Counted from the stretch's first letter, positions 1-38,261 are shown. The stretch is 64,000 nt of DNA from a virus (IMGVR_UViG_3300034374_008984:1-64000), one strand, 5' to 3'. Numbers and translations: made by a program. Notes: generated from the letters alone by a model not told the origin.

Positions 1-276
1 GTAAAGGTCGGTGGGAATGTCTATGCCTTGAACTCAGTGACAACGGCCCCTAGCGGGAACAATTGGTTCGCTCAGGTGAAAGTCCTTCGAGGAGGTGCGA
101 CAGCAGCAATCGGGGAAGGTTCTCTTGTCGTGGACAACGCGCATGAGGGCATTCAGTTGAATGCGACAGGGCTTACTTGGGCCAATGCCCTTGATGTGGA
201 GGTAACCGGGCAGAACGGTACCGCAACAATCAACGACATCGTTGTGTCCTTCGTGTCCGTTCAACTCCTCCGATAA
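1..276 (+). CDS. 3' end of a probable virion/tail protein (start lies before the window)
   Basis: Frame open from position 1 to TAA at 276; beta-rich, Gly/Thr/Val-rich composition; tail-module context. Confidence 0.6.
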   Translation, partial: VKVGGNVYALNSVTTAPSGNNWFAQVKVLRGGATAAIGEGSLVVDNAHEGIQLNATGLTWANALDVEVTGQNGTATINDIVVSFVSVQLLR

Positions 277-282
277 CAGACG

Positions 283-885
283 ATGAGACTCACCTCCCTA
301 AATATCGCCAATGTCCGCCTCAATGCAGGATGCTGCCTGTCAGACATGGTGGAGCGCATGTGGGCGTACAAGGAGGAGGGCGACACCGAGAATGAGAAGT
401 GCGTCAGGGAGAAGGCCCTTATACTGAGTGGCCTGATAAAGACCCTGTGCAGGTGGAGGCCAACGATCAAGACCGCAGGAAGGTCAACCCTTGTCGGAGA
501 AATCGAGTCGGGGACATTTCCCATTCCGTACCTTTACGCGGGGACATCGACAGATGGACTTCCAACATCGAACCCTTTCATGGTGCTAAGTGGGGGCAAT
601 CCAGAGGTCGTTACAGCACTGCTTGACGCCACAAACTGCTTCATATCCCCTAACGATGACCTCGTGCAGACAGTGTCCACAAGAAGGCTTGGCCCCGAGA
701 AAATAGAGGTCGTAAGGGATTATGCTGAAGGGGTGGATTTCCTTATCTCTGAGTTCCCTGACGATGTGACATGGGAAATCACGGGAGGGGGTGAGCAGGT
801 GACAAACCTTCCAAACTGCCTAACAGACGCTCAAGTATTGTCCATCATCAAGAAAATTGAGGAACTTTGCCCCTGCGGGTGCTAA
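283..885 (+). CDS. Hypothetical protein with Cys-rich ends, probably structural
   Basis: 200 aa, ATG 6 nt after previous stop, ends ...IKKIEELCPCGC. Confidence 0.7.
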   Translation: MRLTSLNIANVRLNAGCCLSDMVERMWAYKEEGDTENEKCVREKALILSGLIKTLCRWRPTIKTAGRSTLVGEIESGTFPIPYLYAGTSTDGLPTSNPFMVLSGGNPEVVTALLDATNCFISPNDDLVQTVSTRRLGPEKIEVVRDYAEGVDFLISEFPDDVTWEITGGGEQVTNLPNCLTDAQVLSIIKKIEELCPCGC

Positions 886-902
886 CACATAAATCCAACG
901 CC

Positions 903-1409
903 ATGAACTTTTTCAGACTGATAGGAAATGCTTTGATCGCCTCTGTCGGAGGTTTTCGCCCGGTACTTCGGGGAATCGCCAACGGGGTACAGGATGATGA
1001 TGCTGCTACGGTGGGGCAGTCGGTGCCTCCCGTCCCATTTGCATTCTCAACACTAATAGAAGTCAATGACGGAGCAATATCGGGTCTTTTCGAGGTTCTT
1101 GATTACGAGATAGATGTACCTTTAAGTGCAATACAAGGTGAGGAGGCAAGCGTTGAAGGGTTCGTGTTTTACTTAGACACCCAAAGAGGCTCTTATTGGG
1201 GAGACATTCAAGTGTCTGTCACTGCATCAGAACTCTTCGCTGTTGACATCAAACTTGAGACTATTGACACTACTGAATGCAACAGCCTTGTGGTTGTTAC
1301 CATAGACGGAGAAACAACTGCCGGCACTTCTCATGCAGTGGAAATAACGGCAACAGGAGGGGACCACTCTATAACAAGGACATTCACGCTGAACATTGAG
1401 GAAGAGTAA
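903..1409 (+). CDS. Putative tail fibre or trimeric appendage protein
   Basis: GIANGVQDDDAATVGQ resembles the neck motif of trimeric adhesins and fibres; Ig/cadherin-like C-terminus (HAVEITATGG..ITRTFTLNI). Confidence 0.55.
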   Translation: MNFFRLIGNALIASVGGFRPVLRGIANGVQDDDAATVGQSVPPVPFAFSTLIEVNDGAISGLFEVLDYEIDVPLSAIQGEEASVEGFVFYLDTQRGSYWGDIQVSVTASELFAVDIKLETIDTTECNSLVVVTIDGETTAGTSHAVEITATGGDHSITRTFTLNIEEE

Positions 1410-1430
1410 TAACAAGGCATAAAAAACATC

Positions 1431-1748
1431 ATGGCAGTACTATCATCACAAGAGGTTCAGGTACTTGTCGATCAGACAAAGGCCCTATCAAGCATGTCCG
1501 GCATTAACGGCTCTATGATCTATGGAGTGAGTGTGGCCGCACACACAGGTTCATTCTGCGCGATCTCAATAAGAGAGTCAGGCACCACTTTCACTTCATT
1601 AGTAGCGAAAGGAGCAGGACCCGACCTTGCATTGACAGACTTCTACAAGGATTCCACTACACCTCTTACAGGGGATCTGTTGACCCCTCCGAGAGGTTAT
1701 GCGTTCACATCGTTCCAGCTCAGTGCCGGATCAGTACAGGCCCACTGA
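1431..1748 (+). CDS. Hypothetical small virion-module protein
   Basis: 105 aa, A-rich leader, tightly packed with neighbours. Confidence 0.7.
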   Translation: MAVLSSQEVQVLVDQTKALSSMSGINGSMIYGVSVAAHTGSFCAISIRESGTTFTSLVAKGAGPDLALTDFYKDSTTPLTGDLLTPPRGYAFTSFQLSAGSVQAH

Positions 1749-1788
1749 TGTTCGTGTTTAACGGGACATACATGTTCAGACCTCAAAA

Positions 1789-3030
1789 ATGAGTAGTTGT
1801 CCTTTCATATTCGGTGCAAGAAGTTCTGGAGCAGGCGGCTCTGTTTCCCTCGCAGTATCGGACATCTCACCTAATGCGGGTGACACAGTTACCTTAACGG
1901 CAACTCCATCAGGTTTTACACCAACAAGCTACCAATTCTTACTATTCAATGGCAGTGTAACGCTTCTTTCTCAACAATCGGGAAACACATACAACTGGAC
2001 GGTTAATGTGCCTGCTGGTAATTACTCTATCTATGTACTTGCCACGGATGGCGCTACGGATGTGTTCGATTCGCAGGATGTTACCGTAAACGCATTGTAT
2101 CTTCTTGGTTTATACCCTACCGACTGCATCACGGATTTTGCACCTTTCAGATTGCTTGGATCCTTTACAGGTAGGATTATGGAGGTGAGGAGGTTGGTTG
2201 GGTCAACTACGACAGCGGTTGAAATAGGATTTGACGGTGACTACGTGACACTGGACAGTCCTGTGTTATCTGTTACCGTTGGCAGCTCATCGGCTACCAC
2301 ATTAGGTTCATTTGTGAACGCATCGGGATACCCTAATCAAGACAGCTTATCGGGAGCTCAGTCGGCATTTGTGGTGCGTGGATATAGGCAACTAAACGGT
2401 GCGCTTGCATGGGAACAAACAGTAGCGGCTAATCAGCCAAGGCTTGTGGATAGCGGAACACTTGACGTTTTGGGTGCGTTCGGATGCCTGAGATTCCTCG
2501 GAAATCAGTGGCAGGATTACGGACTGATAAGTGGTTTAAACAAACCAGCGAACTACTCTATTCTGTCCGTTGCCTCGTTCGATAGCACGGGAGCGATGGG
2601 ACTGTATGGGTCGCGGCCTGCGGGCAGTGGTCAAACACCGTTCAGTTACGGTCATATATGGAAGCAGCCATCGGGTAGTAGTACGATAACAACGCTATAT
2701 GGTGATGGTATAAACCAGCGAATCGCGACAACATTGACAAATCCAATTGTGGTAACGTCTATGCAGCTTTTTGAAGACTACAAGTCATCGGGGGTCTTAG
2801 ATTCTGATCTATACGTTGACGGTAGCGGACCTATACCCTTTTCAGGCACGGGCAGCGCGCTGAATGTTTTTGGTACGGCAACAAGGATGCTGTTCGGAAG
2901 GTTTGGCGATTCATCGGGCAACATTTTAACGGGCCGACAGCTCATGTTCGTGGTCTATGAGGGCAACAAGTCAGCCGACCGATTAGGCATGAAGAATGCG
3001 ATAAACTCAATACTTGGCACGTCATGGTAA
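1789..3030 (+). CDS. Putative tail fibre / receptor-binding protein (Ig-like plus ConA/LamG-like domains)
   Basis: N-terminal Ig-like segment (GDTVTLTATP...GNYSIYV); QTVAANQPRLV motif and lectin-like C-terminus. Confidence 0.6.
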   Translation: MSSCPFIFGARSSGAGGSVSLAVSDISPNAGDTVTLTATPSGFTPTSYQFLLFNGSVTLLSQQSGNTYNWTVNVPAGNYSIYVLATDGATDVFDSQDVTVNALYLLGLYPTDCITDFAPFRLLGSFTGRIMEVRRLVGSTTTAVEIGFDGDYVTLDSPVLSVTVGSSSATTLGSFVNASGYPNQDSLSGAQSAFVVRGYRQLNGALAWEQTVAANQPRLVDSGTLDVLGAFGCLRFLGNQWQDYGLISGLNKPANYSILSVASFDSTGAMGLYGSRPAGSGQTPFSYGHIWKQPSGSSTITTLYGDGINQRIATTLTNPIVVTSMQLFEDYKSSGVLDSDLYVDGSGPIPFSGTGSALNVFGTATRMLFGRFGDSSGNILTGRQLMFVVYEGNKSADRLGMKNAINSILGTSW

Positions 3031-3239
3031 AGCTGGGATACCTATACGACAACGAGGCCGCTGCACTTTCGGCACGTGACCTGTGCGACAATTACTACGG
3101 ATGTCCGAACCATGCAGCCCAGCATTGGGTCAGTGTGCAGCAGTGGGGGGATAAGTGGGCTATTATCTACAACAACACGCTGCCAATTGTTCTTGGCGCA
3201 CCTATTGTTTTACCTGAATTGGAAAATGAACATGAATAA
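3024..3239 (+). CDS. Small hypothetical protein, possible fibre chaperone
   Basis: 71 aa overlapping the end of the fibre gene. Confidence 0.6.
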   Translation: MVKLGYLYDNEAAALSARDLCDNYYGCPNHAAQHWVSVQQWGDKWAIIYNNTLPIVLGAPIVLPELENEHE

Positions 3240-3286
3240 ACCATGAAAGCAGACCACACCATAATCACCATAATTTACAATCTCTA

Positions 3287-3442
3287 ATGAGTGGTTACAG
3301 GTACATATTCGGGGCAGTTCCAGGAGGAAGCGCTCCATTAGCAGGGCAGGTTGACCTGACCCAATCCCCTGTGTACTACATTGGATACTGTACTTGCAGC
3401 AATAGCCTCAATCAAGCCAGTTCCTTGATGATTGTGAATTGA
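3287..3442 (+). pseudogene. 51-codon ORF, possible remnant of a second fibre gene
   Basis: Starts MSGYRYIFGAVPGG, similar to MSSCPFIFGARSSG of the 1789 ORF. Confidence 0.35.
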
Positions 3443-31418: not shown

Positions 31419-33434
31419 ATGAACAGTAACGAGTACGAGATAGAGACAAGCCAGCCCGACCCCGAATCGGGAGCCTCTGAGCACGGCAAGGAGGCAACGT
31501 CCATCCCTAAGCTGATCCTCCCTGCACCGATACCCGTCAGGCCACCCAAGTATTCTCGGAATCAGTACGAGGAGGAACACAAGGAGTGGCTCAGAAAGAA
31601 GCGAGGGGAATCGGCATGGAGAACTGAGCAAAGGAGGAGATGGAAAGAGGGGTTTGCGGGATTGACGGGAATCCACTACTTCTACATTACCCAGATGCGG
31701 ATAAAGGACGCGGAGGGAAATCCCATCCGGCCCATGTGGAGGGATGTGGACGAGGAAATCTTCCGAGAGTTCGAGCTGTGCTACAAGGACGAAATCGACT
31801 TCTACGTGTTCAAGAGACGTGAGGTGGGACTTTCATCCGTGTTCGGAGGTGCGATTCCATTGTACCTCCTCATCATGTACCCCAACAGCACCTCGCTAAT
31901 GACCTCCGCTGACCTTACCCGCGTGAAGGACCTCATGGCGAACAAGCTCATTGCCCAGCACAGCTACCTTGAGGATTGGGTAAAGCCGAAAAGGAAGACC
32001 TACGACCCGCAGAAAGGGGCCACGTTCTTGGAGATTGACGAGGACGGCAACGAGACAGGGAACATGGCCGAGATTGTTTGCAGGCAGACATCGCAGGATA
32101 AGAAGGACGTGACCAACTTGGAGGGCGCAAGGGCCAAGTATGTGTTCCTTGACGAGCTCTTCCTTCACCCGTACCCCGAGGAGGTCCGCTCGTCAGCCCA
32201 ATCGTGTCTCATGTCGGGCATGGAAAGAGTTGGGATCATGGTGGCGGGAGGTAGCGCGGGTGCCGTGTCGAGGCTCGGACTGAAACAGGCAAGGGAAATA
32301 TCTCAGAAGGCATTGACGGGAAGCCTGAGAATGCTGTTTCTGTCGGGGGCGAAGGGGATAACAGCCGCAACGATACGAGATGAGAACGGAAAGAAGATAG
32401 GCACGGAGAACTTCTGCATAAACGGATGGTCGGACGTGGCGCGGGCAGAGGCATACATTAAATGGCAGAGAGCGATACTTGACCTGAGCCCCAACAAACA
32501 GGAACTCATCTCATTCACCAAGAGGTATCCGCTCACGCTCGAAGAGGTACTCACGTCAGACGATTTCGGGGTGATTCCAAGAGACATTGCCGAGCAGATA
32601 CCCGCACAGGAACTCGAACTAAGAAGCAACCCAAGAAACCTCAAACGGGTCACGATAACATTCGAGAACGGGAAGCCAACTTTCAGGAACGACAGCAGAG
32701 GCGCGTGGCTCATCCTTGAACACCCGGTCGCTGGAGAGTACTACTGGATGGGAACGGACGCGATTCCCATGATGGCAAAGAAGGCTGAGGCCACAATAAA
32801 CCCCGATGGAACGGAGCGGTCGATGCACTGCTCGGCCATTAAACGGAAAGGCACCAACAGCTACGTTGCCATATATCTCCGCAGGACATCCGATGTGGAC
32901 CTCATATTCGATGAGATGTTCGCAGCTCAACAGGCATATAACAACTGCCAGAACATGATTGAGAGAAACTCCGCAGGACTCATCTACGATAGATACTCCC
33001 GTAGCGGAAACCTCAAATACCTCGCGTATCAACCAGAAGCGTTCGGCTCCAAGGGATTCAAGAAGGGAACCGTCAGGGGAGTACACAAGGACGGGCACAA
33101 CTCGGAAAGGATCTACAACGCAGGGTTCGACTACTTCAGGGACAACATGCGCCTCGTTGACTTCCCTATCATCCTCGAACAGCTCAGAGTGTTCGGCTCA
33201 GAGAACACGGACGTGATTGACGCGATAATGATGTGCGAGGTGTTCCATAAGTATCAGGAGATCTCAGCAGGGGAACGCGCTGTCAGGGCCATGAAGCAGA
33301 CCTACAAATACCAACCCTACATCACATACGAGAACGGGAACCGCGTAGTGAGACACAAGAAGGTGGCCGTCAATTCGGCAGGTCAAGTAATAGGCCCCCA
33401 TCAAGGAATGACACCACTGACAGGATTATTGTGA
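31419..33434 (+). CDS. terL: Terminase large subunit
   Basis: KRREVGLS (Walker A variant), VFLDE (Walker B), nuclease GTD ... IERN ... DVIDA; upstream of the portal; promoter box at 31383. Confidence 0.88.
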   Translation: MNSNEYEIETSQPDPESGASEHGKEATSIPKLILPAPIPVRPPKYSRNQYEEEHKEWLRKKRGESAWRTEQRRRWKEGFAGLTGIHYFYITQMRIKDAEGNPIRPMWRDVDEEIFREFELCYKDEIDFYVFKRREVGLSSVFGGAIPLYLLIMYPNSTSLMTSADLTRVKDLMANKLIAQHSYLEDWVKPKRKTYDPQKGATFLEIDEDGNETGNMAEIVCRQTSQDKKDVTNLEGARAKYVFLDELFLHPYPEEVRSSAQSCLMSGMERVGIMVAGGSAGAVSRLGLKQAREISQKALTGSLRMLFLSGAKGITAATIRDENGKKIGTENFCINGWSDVARAEAYIKWQRAILDLSPNKQELISFTKRYPLTLEEVLTSDDFGVIPRDIAEQIPAQELELRSNPRNLKRVTITFENGKPTFRNDSRGAWLILEHPVAGEYYWMGTDAIPMMAKKAEATINPDGTERSMHCSAIKRKGTNSYVAIYLRRTSDVDLIFDEMFAAQQAYNNCQNMIERNSAGLIYDRYSRSGNLKYLAYQPEAFGSKGFKKGTVRGVHKDGHNSERIYNAGFDYFRDNMRLVDFPIILEQLRVFGSENTDVIDAIMMCEVFHKYQEISAGERAVRAMKQTYKYQPYITYENGNRVVRHKKVAVNSAGQVIGPHQGMTPLTGLL

Positions 33435-33486
33435 CTTGTAAAAAATTTATTTGCACAGGTTAAAAATTGTGCGTAGTTTTGAAGGC

Positions 33487-33873
33487 ATGATCCAATCCAC
33501 CTCCTGCACGGTGCATCCCTCAATAAGCCCCTCCGAGAATTATCTATCGGTGTTCCTCGGTGTGCATCAGTACAAAGACCAGTTCGGGGCTTATCCAGTG
33601 GCGGTCGTGAAGGACAAGAACGGGAGACTCATGCAGTGCAAGCTGTCGGCAGTGGAGGTAGAGGTTCCTTGGGGGATACCTTGCAGGGTCATCTACAAGG
33701 ACACCGACTACACGACACTGTTCTTGGGCACGTTCGACTTCTCCGATGGAGAGAAATCCTATCCGGTGGCCGTTATCAGGAACCAGGATGGGAGGTTGCA
33801 GGCAATCCGTTTGGAGGCCGTTCACTTTCTCTCCTCCGTGTATCTCTTTGAAAGAAAAAAGAATGAACCATGA
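33487..33873 (+). CDS. Hypothetical protein with a tandemly duplicated domain
   Basis: FLG..Y....YPVAVV.D.NGRL pattern occurs twice. Confidence 0.7.
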   Translation: MIQSTSCTVHPSISPSENYLSVFLGVHQYKDQFGAYPVAVVKDKNGRLMQCKLSAVEVEVPWGIPCRVIYKDTDYTTLFLGTFDFSDGEKSYPVAVIRNQDGRLQAIRLEAVHFLSSVYLFERKKNEP

Positions 33874-34052
33874 ACCTCCCCGACACCCCATACAAGATAG
33901 GCTCCACCCGAATCCTCAACGAGGGCAAGAAGTGGTTTCTTTGCAGGGCCACCCCTCCGATACACAAAGGGTTCTGCTATGTGGTCTGGAAGAAAATCAA
34001 AGAAGTGCCCAATCAAACAGGAAAGTCGCAGCTTGAGTTTCAGTTTGGGTAA
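33870..34052 (+). CDS. Small hypothetical protein
   Basis: 60 aa; stop codon overlaps the TAAC of the first attC-like arm. Confidence 0.55.
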   Translation: MNLPDTPYKIGSTRILNEGKKWFLCRATPPIHKGFCYVVWKKIKEVPNQTGKSQLEFQFG

Positions 34053-34135
34053 CGTATTGGTATATGGTTAGTGCCGTGTAAATAGCACAGACCTTTGAAT
34101 TAAGAACAGAAGTAATAATTAAATATTTTTAGAGC

Positions 34136-34828
34136 GTGGGCAAAATAAATAACTTATATACAGCAGAAGCATTATCATTTATGAAGGAAATGAATGATAA
34201 CTCTGTTGACATAATAGTAACATCACCACCGTATAATTTAATGGGGCAATACTCTTGTAAATCACAAATGAACAGAAGTTTTACAAGTAAAAGGCTTGAA
34301 GATTGGTATGATGATAAAATGGATGAAAAAGAATACCAACAATGGCAAAAAGAATGTGTTAGGGAAATGGTTAGAATATGTAAAGGAAGTGTTTTTTACG
34401 TGCATCAAGTTAGATATGCTTGGGGTAGAAAAAACGAGTTTTACCACCCTATACATTGGTTAAATGAATTTGTTATATGGTCTGAAATAATTTGGAATAG
34501 AGGAAATGGTATAAGTGCTGCAAAAAGACCAACAATGGCTGACCAAAGGATTTATATGATTGGTAAACCTAAAGTTTGGAATAAGCCAAATTGCACAAGT
34601 GTTTGGGATATACCTTCTGTTAGAAATTCTAATCACGTTTGTCCATTTCCTGATGAATTAGTAGAAAGATGTTTAAATATGTGTAGTAATGAAGGCGATA
34701 TTGTTTTTGACCCATTTGTAGGTATAGGAACAACAGCAAGAGTTGCTAAAAAAATGAATAGAAAATATATTGGTGTTGATATAAATGAAAATTATATAAA
34801 CGAAGCTAAAACCAAATTGCTGACGTAG
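34136..34828 (+). CDS. Amino-DNA methyltransferase, beta class, probably N4-C
   Basis: TSPPY before DPFVGIGTT; HVCPFP. Confidence 0.88.
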   Translation: MGKINNLYTAEALSFMKEMNDNSVDIIVTSPPYNLMGQYSCKSQMNRSFTSKRLEDWYDDKMDEKEYQQWQKECVREMVRICKGSVFYVHQVRYAWGRKNEFYHPIHWLNEFVIWSEIIWNRGNGISAAKRPTMADQRIYMIGKPKVWNKPNCTSVWDIPSVRNSNHVCPFPDELVERCLNMCSNEGDIVFDPFVGIGTTARVAKKMNRKYIGVDINENYINEAKTKLLT

Positions 34829-35001
34829 GAAACAAAAGAGCGTGGGCAAAAAATATTTAATTATGGGTAAAAAGGCACAAACGATTGAATTAAGCACGAA
34901 CTTAGGCATTAACTATATACCGTGTTGTAAAATCGTTTTAATGTTTTACAACGTTTTCGGGCTTGGCGAAGGCGGGGATTTAACCACAAAAGTTTAATAG
35001 A

Positions 35002-35715
35002 ATGACAGAAGATAATTTACATACAAAAGTTGATTTGGAAAACGGAAGCCCCGCTTTTGCCAAACCCGTGTTATACGCTGGGGCGGGTATCAAGGCAAAC
35101 ATTTCAATTTATAACGAGGACTGTTTGCAAGCATTAAAGGCAATGGCAGACAAACAATTTGATTTAGCCATAGTTGACCCACCTTACGGAATAGGAGCAG
35201 AAAACCACGCAGGCAATAAAGATAATGGATGGACACAATGGGCTAAAAAAGATTGGGATAAGGCAATACCAACGGCTGAATATTGGGAGCAACTTTTTAG
35301 GGTAAGCAAAAATCAAATTGTTTGGGGTGCAAATTATATGACGGAATACTTACCACCTAAAATGGGTTGGATTGTTTGGGATAAAGGGCAAAGGGATTTT
35401 AGCCTTGCTGACGGAGAACTTGCTTGGACTTCATTTGATAAAGCAATGAGGATATTTACTTACGCAAGAGCAAAAGCATTAAAGGAAGGTAAAATACATC
35501 CAACGCAAAAGCCGACTGATTTATACAAATGGCTTTTAGATAAGTATGCAAAGCAAGGCGATAAAATCCTTGACACCCATTTAGGAAGTGGAAGTATTGC
35601 CATTGCCTGCTGGGATATGGGTTACGACTTAACAGCCTATGAAGTTGATAAGGAGTATTACGATAATGCTTGCAAACGATTAGAAACGCATAAGTCTCAA
35701 TTAACGCTATGGTAG
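35002..35715 (+). CDS. N6-adenine DNA methyltransferase, beta class
   Basis: DPPY, HPTQKP, DTHLGSGS. Confidence 0.9.
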   Translation: MTEDNLHTKVDLENGSPAFAKPVLYAGAGIKANISIYNEDCLQALKAMADKQFDLAIVDPPYGIGAENHAGNKDNGWTQWAKKDWDKAIPTAEYWEQLFRVSKNQIVWGANYMTEYLPPKMGWIVWDKGQRDFSLADGELAWTSFDKAMRIFTYARAKALKEGKIHPTQKPTDLYKWLLDKYAKQGDKILDTHLGSGSIAIACWDMGYDLTAYEVDKEYYDNACKRLETHKSQLTLW

Positions 35716-35757
35716 CCCTTGCGTATAACTCTCCGATACACGAAAGTTTACTATGCA

Positions 35758-35988
35758 ATGAAACACACAGTGTCAACAACATACGATTTAGTGTGGCAGA
35801 TTAGTGGCGCGGAGCATTACAAGTTTACTTCTGATGGCATCTGCATAAATACCCGAACAGGAAAACGAATAAAGAAGACCCTTTGTGGCCGTTCTGTCGG
35901 GTATTGCATTTCGGGGAAATTCGTGTCGACCACTACGCTAAGGACACGACTTCAGCGAATCCCGAAAGAGATTTCCTGCCCGTTCTGA
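35758..35988 (+). CDS. Small basic protein, weakly NUMOD4-like
   Basis: YKFTSDG..INTRTGKRIK. Confidence 0.45.
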   Translation: MKHTVSTTYDLVWQISGAEHYKFTSDGICINTRTGKRIKKTLCGRSVGYCISGKFVSTTTLRTRLQRIPKEISCPF

Positions 35989-36047
35989 CATCATTCCCTC
36001 CATTGCGTTCCCTTCCGTAGCTTTGTCCCCTACGGAGATAACTCAGC

Positions 36048-38261
36048 ATGGACAACTACAAGCTACTTGACACGGAAGGCCCATCGCATCAGATGGAGAC
36101 CCACCGCCCTAATGTCGTAGGCACGAAACGGGCCCTGAAAAAAGAACACAAGGGGATGCACGGCATGATTGCCAAGTACCTCCGCTTCATGGTCACGCAG
36201 TGGAACCTCGACTACAATACCCCTCTCTACTCCACGAGGAATCCCGGCCACATCCTTCACAGGTCTCCCGTAGAGGAGATGCTCCTCAATTACAAGTACT
36301 ATCAGTCCCAGCAGGATGTTAACAGCTATGCCTACCTGACAGAAACCGCAGAGGGGGAGGAGCGTCCAGCCAAATTTACCCATGGTTCAGAGATCTATCA
36401 GGTGGTGCAGCACATGGTAGGCCCCGTTGTGAAGCACTTCGCAGGGACAACCATCACAATCGAATCCCTTGATCCCTCCGTGCAGTCCAAGCGGCAGGCC
36501 AAGGTCGCAATGCTTCAAGCCAAGAAACTCCTGCCAGACATCTTCAAGAGGTTCTCCGAAATGGGCGCCACGTTCATGCCTGAAGGAGCAACCGAGGCAA
36601 AGGACATGGACGGGGCTATTCAGGAGGCGCTGAGAAAACCAGCCCACAAGGTCGAGCGGTACGGCATGGACATCCTTACTCATGTCAACAACACCAACAG
36701 CGTAAAGGACTACATGCCCAAGCGTTTCAAGGATGTCGTCATTGGAAGGCATTGCGCAACGCACAGAACAGTATCCAATGGAAGAATCGTCCTCGAAAAG
36801 ATTGACCCTTGGAACCTCATCTTCGACAGAGACAACTCAGATGACGACTACAACAGGTACGCCCTGTTCAAGGGATTCATCAGTTGGAAATCCCACGAGG
36901 AGATCATGCAGGCGTACACCCTCGGAAGCGATGCCGAGGAAGAACTCAAGAAGCTCTTCGACAGCAACAGGAGTGCAACACTGCCGGGACTCAACGGAGT
37001 GATGGGTAATGTCCCCCAATCTGGATTCTCTTGGCTGGAATCGGACGGACCCCGTAGAATAGCCTGTGTGACAGGATACTTCATCGCCACGATAAAGGAA
37101 GATGACGGGACATCCTATCAGACCATCTACGAGGGGACTTTGATAGGAAACACGGTGCTTGTCAACTTCGGGGAATCCAACAACATCAGCTACGACATAG
37201 CCCGACCTGAGTGGCCGGTCATGCCCATCCATATCTACAGCCCCGACACGATACTCGGAACGAACGTCTGTCCCGTGGACCGGTTCAGAGAAATGCAGGA
37301 GGACTTGGATGCGTTCAAGTACAAGATTCGGGAACACATCGACAGAGACCTCGGAAAGGGGTATGTGTTCTATGCGGATACAGCCGTTCCGAAAGACATC
37401 ATTGAAGACCTCAAGAACTTCGGTGTAACAGTCATCAACAGGGCCGACCCCGAGGAACCCATCATCAACAACAACAGGATGGTGGACACAGTGGACATGA
37501 CCCTTGACCCTAACGTGGCACAGTACATAGCCCTGCGAAAGGAGTTCAAAGCGGACATGGACAATGTGGTATCCCAATCGAACATCACGAGAGGGATGCA
37601 GCAGACGTACATCGGTGGAGGTACACAGCAGGCCACCGTTGCACAGGCCAGCAACGGCACCGTTTCTCTCATGTCGGGATTCTTCCAACACTTTGCCTTC
37701 ATAGAGCAGGACATATTAAATACCGCCAAGACAATGCTCTTGGAGCCCAAGAACAGGGAAGAGGCGGAACTCATTCTCTCTGACGCAAGCGCAGATTTCT
37801 GGGAGGCCATGCAAGACCTCAATGTCATCGACATGCAGGTGCGTATCGAGATGGAGGACTTCATTGACGAGGAGCGCAGGGCAAGGTATCAGCAATATGC
37901 CCTCGCAATGGCACAGAACGCGAGAGAGACAGGGTTCACAATGCTCGATGCCATCAACATCGAGAACGCCCGCACAAGTCAGGAGTTGATGACCAAACTG
38001 AAAGAGTCCCTCGAACTGAAAGAACTGAAAGCCGAGCGCATGAGACAAGAAGACATGGCTATGCAGCAGCAGATGCAACAGATGCAGATGCAGCAGCAAG
38101 GTCAGATGTTCCAACTCGAAGAACAGAACAAGGCTCTTCGAGACCAGATCCGCAACGCGCCCAAGCACGAGGCCAATCAGATCAAACGCGAGGAGATGAA
38201 CATGTCAAGGGACATGGTATTCGCCTCCGAAGCAGGAATGCCAGGAACAGAAGTGGAATAA
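36048..38261 (+). CDS. Portal protein (crAss-like)
   Basis: 737 aa between TerL and scaffold/capsid; helical; Q/M-rich coiled C-terminus; DMTLD..V.QYI motif. Confidence 0.8.
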   Translation: MDNYKLLDTEGPSHQMETHRPNVVGTKRALKKEHKGMHGMIAKYLRFMVTQWNLDYNTPLYSTRNPGHILHRSPVEEMLLNYKYYQSQQDVNSYAYLTETAEGEERPAKFTHGSEIYQVVQHMVGPVVKHFAGTTITIESLDPSVQSKRQAKVAMLQAKKLLPDIFKRFSEMGATFMPEGATEAKDMDGAIQEALRKPAHKVERYGMDILTHVNNTNSVKDYMPKRFKDVVIGRHCATHRTVSNGRIVLEKIDPWNLIFDRDNSDDDYNRYALFKGFISWKSHEEIMQAYTLGSDAEEELKKLFDSNRSATLPGLNGVMGNVPQSGFSWLESDGPRRIACVTGYFIATIKEDDGTSYQTIYEGTLIGNTVLVNFGESNNISYDIARPEWPVMPIHIYSPDTILGTNVCPVDRFREMQEDLDAFKYKIREHIDRDLGKGYVFYADTAVPKDIIEDLKNFGVTVINRADPEEPIINNNRMVDTVDMTLDPNVAQYIALRKEFKADMDNVVSQSNITRGMQQTYIGGGTQQATVAQASNGTVSLMSGFFQHFAFIEQDILNTAKTMLLEPKNREEAELILSDASADFWEAMQDLNVIDMQVRIEMEDFIDEERRARYQQYALAMAQNARETGFTMLDAINIENARTSQELMTKLKESLELKELKAERMRQEDMAMQQQMQQMQMQQQGQMFQLEEQNKALRDQIRNAPKHEANQIKREEMNMSRDMVFASEAGMPGTEVE

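Follow-up and report, generated by a model that had tools for sequence, protein, structure and literature searches.

In a 64,000-nucleotide (nt) stretch of the virus record IMGVR_UViG_3300034374_008984 (hereafter the window; coordinates are positions on its + strand), a DNA methyltransferase gene is enclosed by a short direct repeat that itself lies inside a perfect inverted repeat. The junctions on the two sides of the gene recur together in 29 distinct loci, spread over many aquatic phages, where they enclose unrelated genes, and we call this arrangement slot A. Our favoured reading, held with slightly more than even confidence, is a conserved, RNA-clamped expression slot whose left and right junctions these repeats form and whose cargo is exchanged by recombination in the arms of the inverted repeat and in the motif that is directly repeated.

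At the window locus, the 15-nt direct repeat AGAGCGTGGGCAAAA occurs at 34131-34145 and 34837-34851, with a start-to-start spacing of 706, and it lies inside an inverted repeat of 16 nt and 100% complementarity, ATAATTAAATATTTTT (34115-34130) and AAAAATATTTAATTAT (34849-34864). The left arm ends in a T-run, and the second motif copy is followed by an A-run. The motif core, GAGCGTGGGCA, has exactly two copies in the window and likewise two in the whole 73.6-kb genome. Among 300 shuffles of positions 34000-35000, an exact direct repeat of at least 15 nt arose once, an inverted repeat of at least 16 nt in none, and both together in none; the longest repeats averaged 10.3 nt (direct) and 9.8 nt (inverted). 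The repeat arrangement at 34115-34864 is confirmed as real and not a product of chance. The first-pass annotation of this DNA had reported both repeats with the same coordinates and spacing, and it had described a gene lodged in the loop of a palindromic element, which the repeat topology bears out. It was also right to place the GTG start inside the repeat: the GTG at 34136, within the first copy, is the sole possible start of the cargo, because an in-frame TAG occupies 34130-34132. The cargo open reading frame (ORF), 34136-34828, encodes an N6/N4 DNA methyltransferase of 230 amino acids (aa), with matches to PF01555 (E 3.9e-37) and to the DNA methyltransferase family phrog_67 (E 7.5e-49). 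Two further features were absent from that annotation. One is a degenerate 47-nt direct repeat, X and X', at 34080-34126 and 34870-34916, whose copies are 70% identical. The other is an outer stem of 17 bp with two G.T pairs, formed by GGTATATGGTTAGTGCC (34059-34075) and GGCATTAACTATATACC (34905-34921).

Scans for the motif returned 31 loci in viral contigs and 71 in metagenome contigs, and a scan for the core of X returned 35; after removal of duplicates there were 29 distinct loci with both junctions, enclosing 405-1057 bp of unrelated cargo. On the left, the leader X, kept in the 29 loci, is followed by the arm GTAATAATTAAA(A)TATTTTT, then by (TAG/ATG)AGCG-NK-GG(C/A) and an A-run. On the right, the order is an AACC box, a small hairpin (Hc), A-AGAGCGTKGGC, an A-run, TATTT(T)AATTAT, X', the outer arm and a terminal hairpin (T). 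The AACC box and Hc occupy 34810-34835 in the window, overlapping the cargo stop codon, and one stem base of Hc is mutated there; hairpin T lies at 34924-34952 and has a variable 9-bp stem with the conserved top TCGTTTTAATG. AGAGCGTKGGC is kept in the right junctions, most of which were found with the motif as bait; the variants AGAGCATGGGC and AGTGCGGTGGC of the right copy were found without it. In a scan with the arms only, 116 of 118 among the matches listed were due to chance. A profile of the right junction, searched with nhmmer, was present in single copy in 63 of 70 loci, and the slots are therefore not arrays.

When 18 slot-A cargos were searched against Pfam, eight matched PF01555 (N6/N4 methyltransferase), three PF25680 (Mom), two PF01507 (PAPS_reduct), one PF05063 (MT-A70) and one PF02086 (Dam), and the remaining three had no family. 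The first-pass annotation had named a lack of other cargo bounded by the motif as what would speak against it, and such cargo is plentiful: it comes from at least five Pfam families in the 29 loci, and two further slot types, described below, share the loop motif. The cargo start codon lies within or adjoins the motif (proteins begin MGK, MAK, MEK or MS[VDE]GKK), variants of the motif supplying it in other loci, and in at least 15 unrelated cargos the cargo-specific sequence starts directly after the motif's A-run. That A-run, following GG(C/A), varies from 4 to 9 bases across the 29 loci and lies inside the first cargo codons, and slippage in it could therefore set or break the cargo reading frame. 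In two freshwater sequencing runs (X5 and X10), contigs with loose ends at 34848 have another sequence (..GGGCAATAGCCCAAAAGCGGGAGGGCA) ahead of the A-run and 3' arm, a right-junction variant seen without the motif as bait; slots with a different version of the motif therefore coexist with this phage in the same waters.

The inner (16-bp) and outer (17-bp) arms make up a long-range helix of two tiers, with the cargo ORF in its loop. Across the 29 loci, the outer stem falls into five sequence families with many compensatory differences (for example GGTATATGGTTAGTGCC/GGCATTAACTATATACC, GGTATATGAGCCGTGC/GCATGGCTTATATACC and GTGTTAGCAACTGGCGG/CCGCTTGTTGCTAAC), and for the minority families the best partner among 25 alternatives was their own 3' arm. 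A one-base indel in the inner arms (AAAT or AAAAT) is concordant between the two sides in 26 of the 29 loci. In 28 loci, the duplex between the left and right junction segments of 85 nt had an energy of -34 to -52 kcal/mol; in 26 of these 28 the sense strand was the more stable, with a mean difference from the antisense strand of 8.1 kcal/mol, a bias that is due to G.T pairs. The minimum free energy (MFE) fold of the 926-nt RNA retains both stems (z -2.84), so that the 3' arms at 34849-34864 and 34905-34921 are paired in it. Smaller elements covary as well: in an alignment of 33 right junctions, stem pairs of Hc show 4-14 double compensatory changes, and six stem pairs of hairpin T show 7-20 (33 sequences); downstream of Hc and T, a consistent U-run was not seen. 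Because of the compensatory changes and the greater stability of the sense strand, the helix is likely to form in mRNA, and selection probably acts on a folded single strand of sense polarity in the filled state, which would most simply be the mRNA.

A slot of this kind would hold one exchangeable DNA-modification gene, whose start codon would be supplied by the motif, and the split hairpin would re-form in the transcript as the two-tier helix enclosing the cargo ORF. Such a helix may insulate the cargo transcript or allow it to be processed, for example by a double-strand-specific RNase; alternatively, it may occlude the start codon, which lies 5-6 nt from the stem. Turnover of the cargo would take place through recombination in the arms and motif, since every variant has these ~30-35 nt per side in common and nothing else, in the manner of the PeSL cassettes of T4-like phages, so that a dedicated integrase would be unnecessary, and the filled unit would travel between unrelated phages. 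Two comparisons of loci bear on the extent of the exchanged segment. Loci L093 and L104 contain the same Mom cargo and are 80-100% identical in 20-column bins from arm to arm; outside the arms, identity is ~30-70% per bin. The window and L062 share their flanks and diverge from the motif onwards.

PeSLs (promoter-early stem-loops) are regulatory cassettes in T4-like phages, for which recombination of flanking cassettes and mini-circles have been described (Arbiol et al. 2010, PMC2839356; Comeau et al. 2014, PMC4122927). The likeness to slot A is as follows: short conserved non-coding stem-loop modules flank non-essential phage genes, unrelated genes are swapped, and recombination between flanking copies is a route of insertion, deletion and replacement, demonstrated for PeSLs and proposed here. 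A module also lies on both sides of the variable ORF in slot A, namely the motif in 29 loci (with an exact match of at least 15 nt in four) and X/X' at 70% identity. A PeSL is a whole local terminator plus promoter, repeated on both sides of the gene, whereas the slot repeats only a loop motif of 11-15 nt (and, loosely, X/X') and its hairpin halves pair over 0.5-1 kb. In addition, slot-bearing genomes have one to three dedicated slots rather than dozens, the cargos are almost all DNA-modification enzymes, and no empty inner site or mini-circle was seen for the slot in the contigs and collections scanned.

Slot A is not the only arrangement built on this motif. Forty sites combine a T-run with the motif, and 34 of them have a complementary arm 531-1061 nt downstream; among the other six, two are on contigs that end too soon, two resemble chance matches in coding sequence and two are partnerless. 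The sites belong mainly to three arm families, A, B and C, which have the loop motif in common and differ in their arms. Slot B (11 rows) has the arms GTTAGTTACTGTTATTTTTT and AAAAAATAATTGTTACTAAC, and slot C (seven rows) has CGCTTTTTCTTTTATTTTTT and AAAAAATAAAAGAAAAAGAT. Arm variants are concordant on the two sides (ATGTAC with ATGTAC, AACTAC with AACTAC, and an A-to-C change in slot C), and the slot B arms keep a conserved T.T plus G.T imperfection. The right-hand copy of the motif is reduced in slots B and C, with only ..KGG(C/G) left before the A-run. The small hairpin follows the cargo in slot A and precedes it in slot B. More than one slot can occur on a contig: L116, of 8.5 kb, carries slots B, C and A, and L093 has slot B beside slot A. 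On L004 (positions 1-3400; the same contig as L026 and L102), the slot-A module and a small downstream gene occur twice, flanking a slot-B methyltransferase, and all three module junctions carry ATTGTACATAA, which is the slot-B 3' arm. Either copies of the arm have recombined, or two variants in the population were wrongly assembled into one contig. L070 (7100-7200) has a right junction in which the loop of the 5'-type hairpin (TGAGGTACGA) runs straight into GCGTTGGC and the 3' arm; it looks like a recombinant, with its left part from slot B (left junction) and its right part from slot A (right junction).

Several points weigh against an RNA-clamped slot that is refilled by ordinary recombination. 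The model has no explanation for the second motif copy that is kept at the slot-A right junction, for the start of at least 15 unrelated cargos right after the A-run, or for the topology of a direct repeat within an inverted repeat in three slot types (loosely also in X/X'). The apparent conservation of the motif at the right junction is inflated, because the motif was the search pattern for most of these junctions. The centroid fold of the 926-nt RNA retains the outer stem only, and the arm covariation represents a few lineage-level events rather than many independent ones. Finally, the folded strand could possibly be a DNA hairpin of the + strand instead of RNA, because G.T pairs are tolerated in single-stranded DNA too.

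Because the kept right copy, the regularity at the A-run and the recurring topology are left unexplained, a second explanation is still alive, that of dedicated insertion into a hairpin loop, which the first-pass annotation had put forward and which we consider unlikely. According to this explanation, the sequence arm/T-run - AGAGCGTKGGC - A-run/arm' would be a dedicated target recognised by a phage or host enzyme, and the loop would be duplicated on insertion, either because it recombines with the motif of a circular cassette or because it is cut in a staggered way and filled in. In its favour are the same topology and loop motif in three slot types with unrelated arms, the left cargo boundary directly after the A-run in those unrelated cargos, and the exchange unit bounded by the arms in L093 and L104. 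The switch of the small hairpin from the 3' side of the cargo (slot A) to the 5' side (slot B) is as expected for differently permuted circles, and the slot-A modules on both sides of the slot-B gene in L004 meet their neighbours at arm sequence, although an assembly effect is possible there. The outer hairpin adds a further point: it exists closed in homologues in L036 and L025, upstream of slot B and with no slot A (4-6-nt loops, GATA and TTTTTT), and elsewhere in a homologous context it is split by the whole module.

The inner hairpin has a different record. No empty form was found among 2.9 million viral contigs, the genome collection or the 71 metagenome hits, by patterns that would match one, and in searches for the two arms around any loop of 6-24 nt, all matches (20 viral and 111 genomic loci) were AT-rich palindromes unrelated to the slot. 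The empty-site alleles that the first-pass annotation proposed to look for thus did not appear; closed homologues were found for the outer hairpin only. It had also suggested reads over the empty junction or a 706-bp circle; 24 freshwater DNA runs were listed, and in the fragmentary contigs of four of them (X5, X10, X13 and X18), which drop rare variants, there was no joint across 34131-34837 and no circle, the X18 contigs being uninformative on the joint as they have no cover over 34131-34913.

The structure of the loci also counts against loop insertion. The two motif copies share an exact string of at least 15 nt in four of the 29 loci (median 7), and the right copy is the reduced one in slots B and C. 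In L110, the beginning of an L077-type methyltransferase coding sequence survives in front of a Dam-like gene, so that in this replacement the breakpoint is inside the old cargo, not at the motif. Arm complementarity is maintained in the filled state. As for an enzyme, a tyrosine recombinase (PF00589) is encoded in one of five slot-bearing records, not beside the slot, and serine recombinases (PF00239) and Y1 transposases (PF01797) are in none of the five; all three families are absent from G002, a slot-bearing record rated 98% complete, and the window's genome has no PF00589 or PF01797, PF00239 not having been searched there. On balance, the interpretation given in the first-pass annotation is partly supported.

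A broader version combines features of both explanations, and we regard it as doubtful. The slots would be an integrase-free platform for anti-restriction cassettes, in which AGAGCGTKGGC loops of intergenic hairpins dock genes (methyltransferase, Mom and PAPS-reductase-like), the motif is duplicated, nesting is self-similar (the outer hairpin's loop holding a module and the inner one's a gene) and the mRNA clamp re-forms around each new gene and controls it. The platform would be carried by aquatic Bacteroidota-type phages, and its route, whether enzymatic or by replication or template switching, would be of a kind not yet described.

Somewhat less probable still is that the repeats are purely regulatory and confer no special mobility, the motif being a start or regulatory sequence, the arms a regulatory stem and the cargo variation ordinary replacement at a hotspot. 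The start codon carried by the motif at the left junction, with its recurrent protein beginnings, fits this well, as do the right copy, which reads GTG/TTG-GGC-AAA and opens short frames, the motif-like start of X' (ATGGGTAAA), and the occurrence of the motif 10-60 nt ahead of genes in other contexts. However, the right A-run varies in length from 6 to 8, so that the mini-ORF on that side has no conserved frame, and sites with T-run plus motif are nearly confined to those with a downstream complementary arm (34 of 40), unlike a general gene-start signal. The arm-to-arm exchange unit of L093 and L104 would also be left unexplained.

A non-autonomous DNA transposon (a miniature inverted-repeat transposable element, or MITE, with a passenger gene and a transposase acting in trans) is very improbable: the perfect 16-bp terminal inverted repeat, the arm-bounded exchange unit and the lack of a recombinase encoded by the element would suit it, but the direct repeat is internal to the inverted repeats, no duplication is seen in the sequences that flank the arms (..GAAGTA and ..GGGTAA), the unit is always between X and X' and is single-copy in 63 of 70 loci, the motif occurs just twice in the window's genome, a Y1 transposase was not found (DDE families were not searched), and a sense-strand pairing bias is unexpected for terminal inverted repeats that are bound as duplex DNA.

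The expression slot that we favour can be compared with several known systems besides the PeSLs. Integron cassettes are, like the slot cargos, single genes that mostly lack promoters; they have a 3' hairpin with conserved fold and variable sequence (here Hc), short repeated core sequences at the cassette flanks and strand-specific folding. In contrast to integrons, the slot has no integrase and no arrays, in agreement with the statement of the first-pass annotation that this is not the classical integron model, and it has a split inverted repeat around the cassette, which integrons lack. The core sites of attC read RYYYAAC...GTTRRRY; by eye, the sequences on either side of Hc (AACCTAA ... AAGAGCG) show no complementarity, and no RYYYAAC/GTTRRRY pair was seen.

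Long-range processing stems surround rRNA genes, and RNase III sites occur in the early mRNA of phage T7. Correia elements of Neisseria are transcribed inverted repeats that are bound or cleaved by RNase III (PMC2649163). Common to these and the slot are inverted repeats that pair, or in the slot would pair, in the transcript and, in rRNA operons, a processable stem that spans a whole gene; the slot differs in that it encloses a variable protein-coding cargo and has a repeated loop motif. Group I and group II introns have ORFs lodged in their peripheral loops. The slot resembles them in that a protein gene is tolerated in the loop of a conserved RNA helix while the fold is kept; it differs in that no ribozyme core was found (a search of 33000-37000 against Rfam gave no match at E up to 1) and in having no host gene to splice, and its cargos are not homing endonucleases or reverse transcriptases.

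The genome to which the window belongs is an IMG/VR virus record of 73,651 bp with direct terminal repeats, rated 100% complete. The slot lies in a low-GC island of ~2 kb (34000-35900; 29-43% GC, versus ~52% in the flanks) that is bordered by the portal gene at one end and, at the other, by two small ORFs and the large terminase (TerL) gene. Within 31419-38261, the terminase and portal match no Pfam family; they match only the PHROGs phrog_6681 and phrog_6547, with E values of 4e-15 and 1e-26. The phage lineage is poorly sampled: IMG/VR yielded a single relative, L003, whose TerL is 59% identical at the aa level. In L003, TerL, one small ORF, a gap of 63 nt and the portal gene follow one another, and the island and its methyltransferases are absent; by this comparison, made with a single relative, the island behaves like a moron that carries two methyltransferases. 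Morons are defined by an upstream promoter and a downstream terminator. They are said to have been reported in lambdoid phages by Juhala et al. in 2000, and the likeness lies in an extra gene of deviant composition that brings non-coding signals on its flanks and separates genes which are neighbours in L003. The difference is that morons are not known to occupy a conserved, structured slot that is reused and has both a repeated motif and a long-range stem.

Where the unit was assembled is a separate question. The acquired low-GC segment, 34051-34953 (slot A with its cargo and flanking hairpins; 29-36% GC), aligns with positions 243-1149 of L004, a low-GC viral contig, with 864 of 907 columns identical (95%), and the cargo protein has 97% aa identity in L004 and L005. 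L004 has the same flanks around the methyltransferase, except for a one-base difference in the repeat and one extra base in the arm. A nearly identical unit with the same flanks shows that the filled slot was imported ready-made and that the insertion was not made in the window's phage. When an annotated phage collection was searched with blastn, slot A was found in no isolate, and matches were limited to the second methyltransferase and to short pieces of hairpin T and X'. The isolates matched in this way are phages of Flavobacterium, Polaribacter and Cellulophaga, and from this sequence similarity we infer a host of Flavobacteriia type.

No account of such an architecture came up in a literature search, which did not reach supplementary files or subscription journals. 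The DNA modification of a phage has to suit the restriction systems of whichever host it infects, and a standard socket for any modification gene, in which the start and stop signals are kept and a conserved RNA stem encloses the gene, would explain a fast spread between unrelated phages, here from low-GC marine-type phages to a freshwater phage of 52% GC. The conserved junctions could be used as bait for unknown anti-defence genes, given that three of the 18 tested cargos have no Pfam family. Long-range covarying stems around a protein gene would be an unusual and testable mRNA architecture in phages, and if the loop motif were a recombination target, the slots would represent a new kind of cassette system.

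Downstream of slot A in the window, a second methyltransferase gene (35002-35715, + strand; PF01555, E 2e-14; ~40% GC) has 71% nt identity to methyltransferases of Flavobacterium phages. It is bracketed by an inverted repeat, 35070-35084 and 35715-35729 (GTTATACGCTGGGGC and GCCCTTGCGTATAAC), that is 87% complementary. By eye, these arms resemble those of slot B with the T-run and A-run replaced by G/C pairs. The second methyltransferase is likely to be the cargo of an older, partly decayed slot B whose composition would have drifted towards that of the 52%-GC genome.

The remaining observations concern X', hairpin T and the sequence after it. X' contains a short, non-conserved ORF. The X' region (34864-34925 and its equivalents) opens with ATGGGTAAA and in many loci encodes the peptide MGK(Q/K)AQTIELST(D/N)LGINYIPC..; a similar peptide is present in a diverged family (MGKLAQTLLRRTDLSMAYIPCC), and the frame is broken elsewhere (L116). 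X' may be a relic of a gene start, possibly that of a helix-turn-helix protein, rather than a live gene. A promoter of the sigma-54 or Bacteroidota -33/-7 type was considered for the motif plus X and rejected by eye, as the consensus spacing is not matched; readings of the motif or of hairpin T as tRNA-like, as attP, as cos/pac or as an HUH origin were dropped for want of any supporting feature. A degenerate motif, TTTTCGGGCTTGGCGAA, follows hairpin T at ~34954-34970. Hairpins of the T type, with a freely varying stem and the conserved top (T/A)CGTTTTAATG, are intergenic in the Cellulophaga phages phi39:1 and phi19:1 (L143, 890-960; L145, 3000-3040), with the same loop as in the window. In phi39:1, two structures of this type stand in tandem directly upstream of the small terminase gene.

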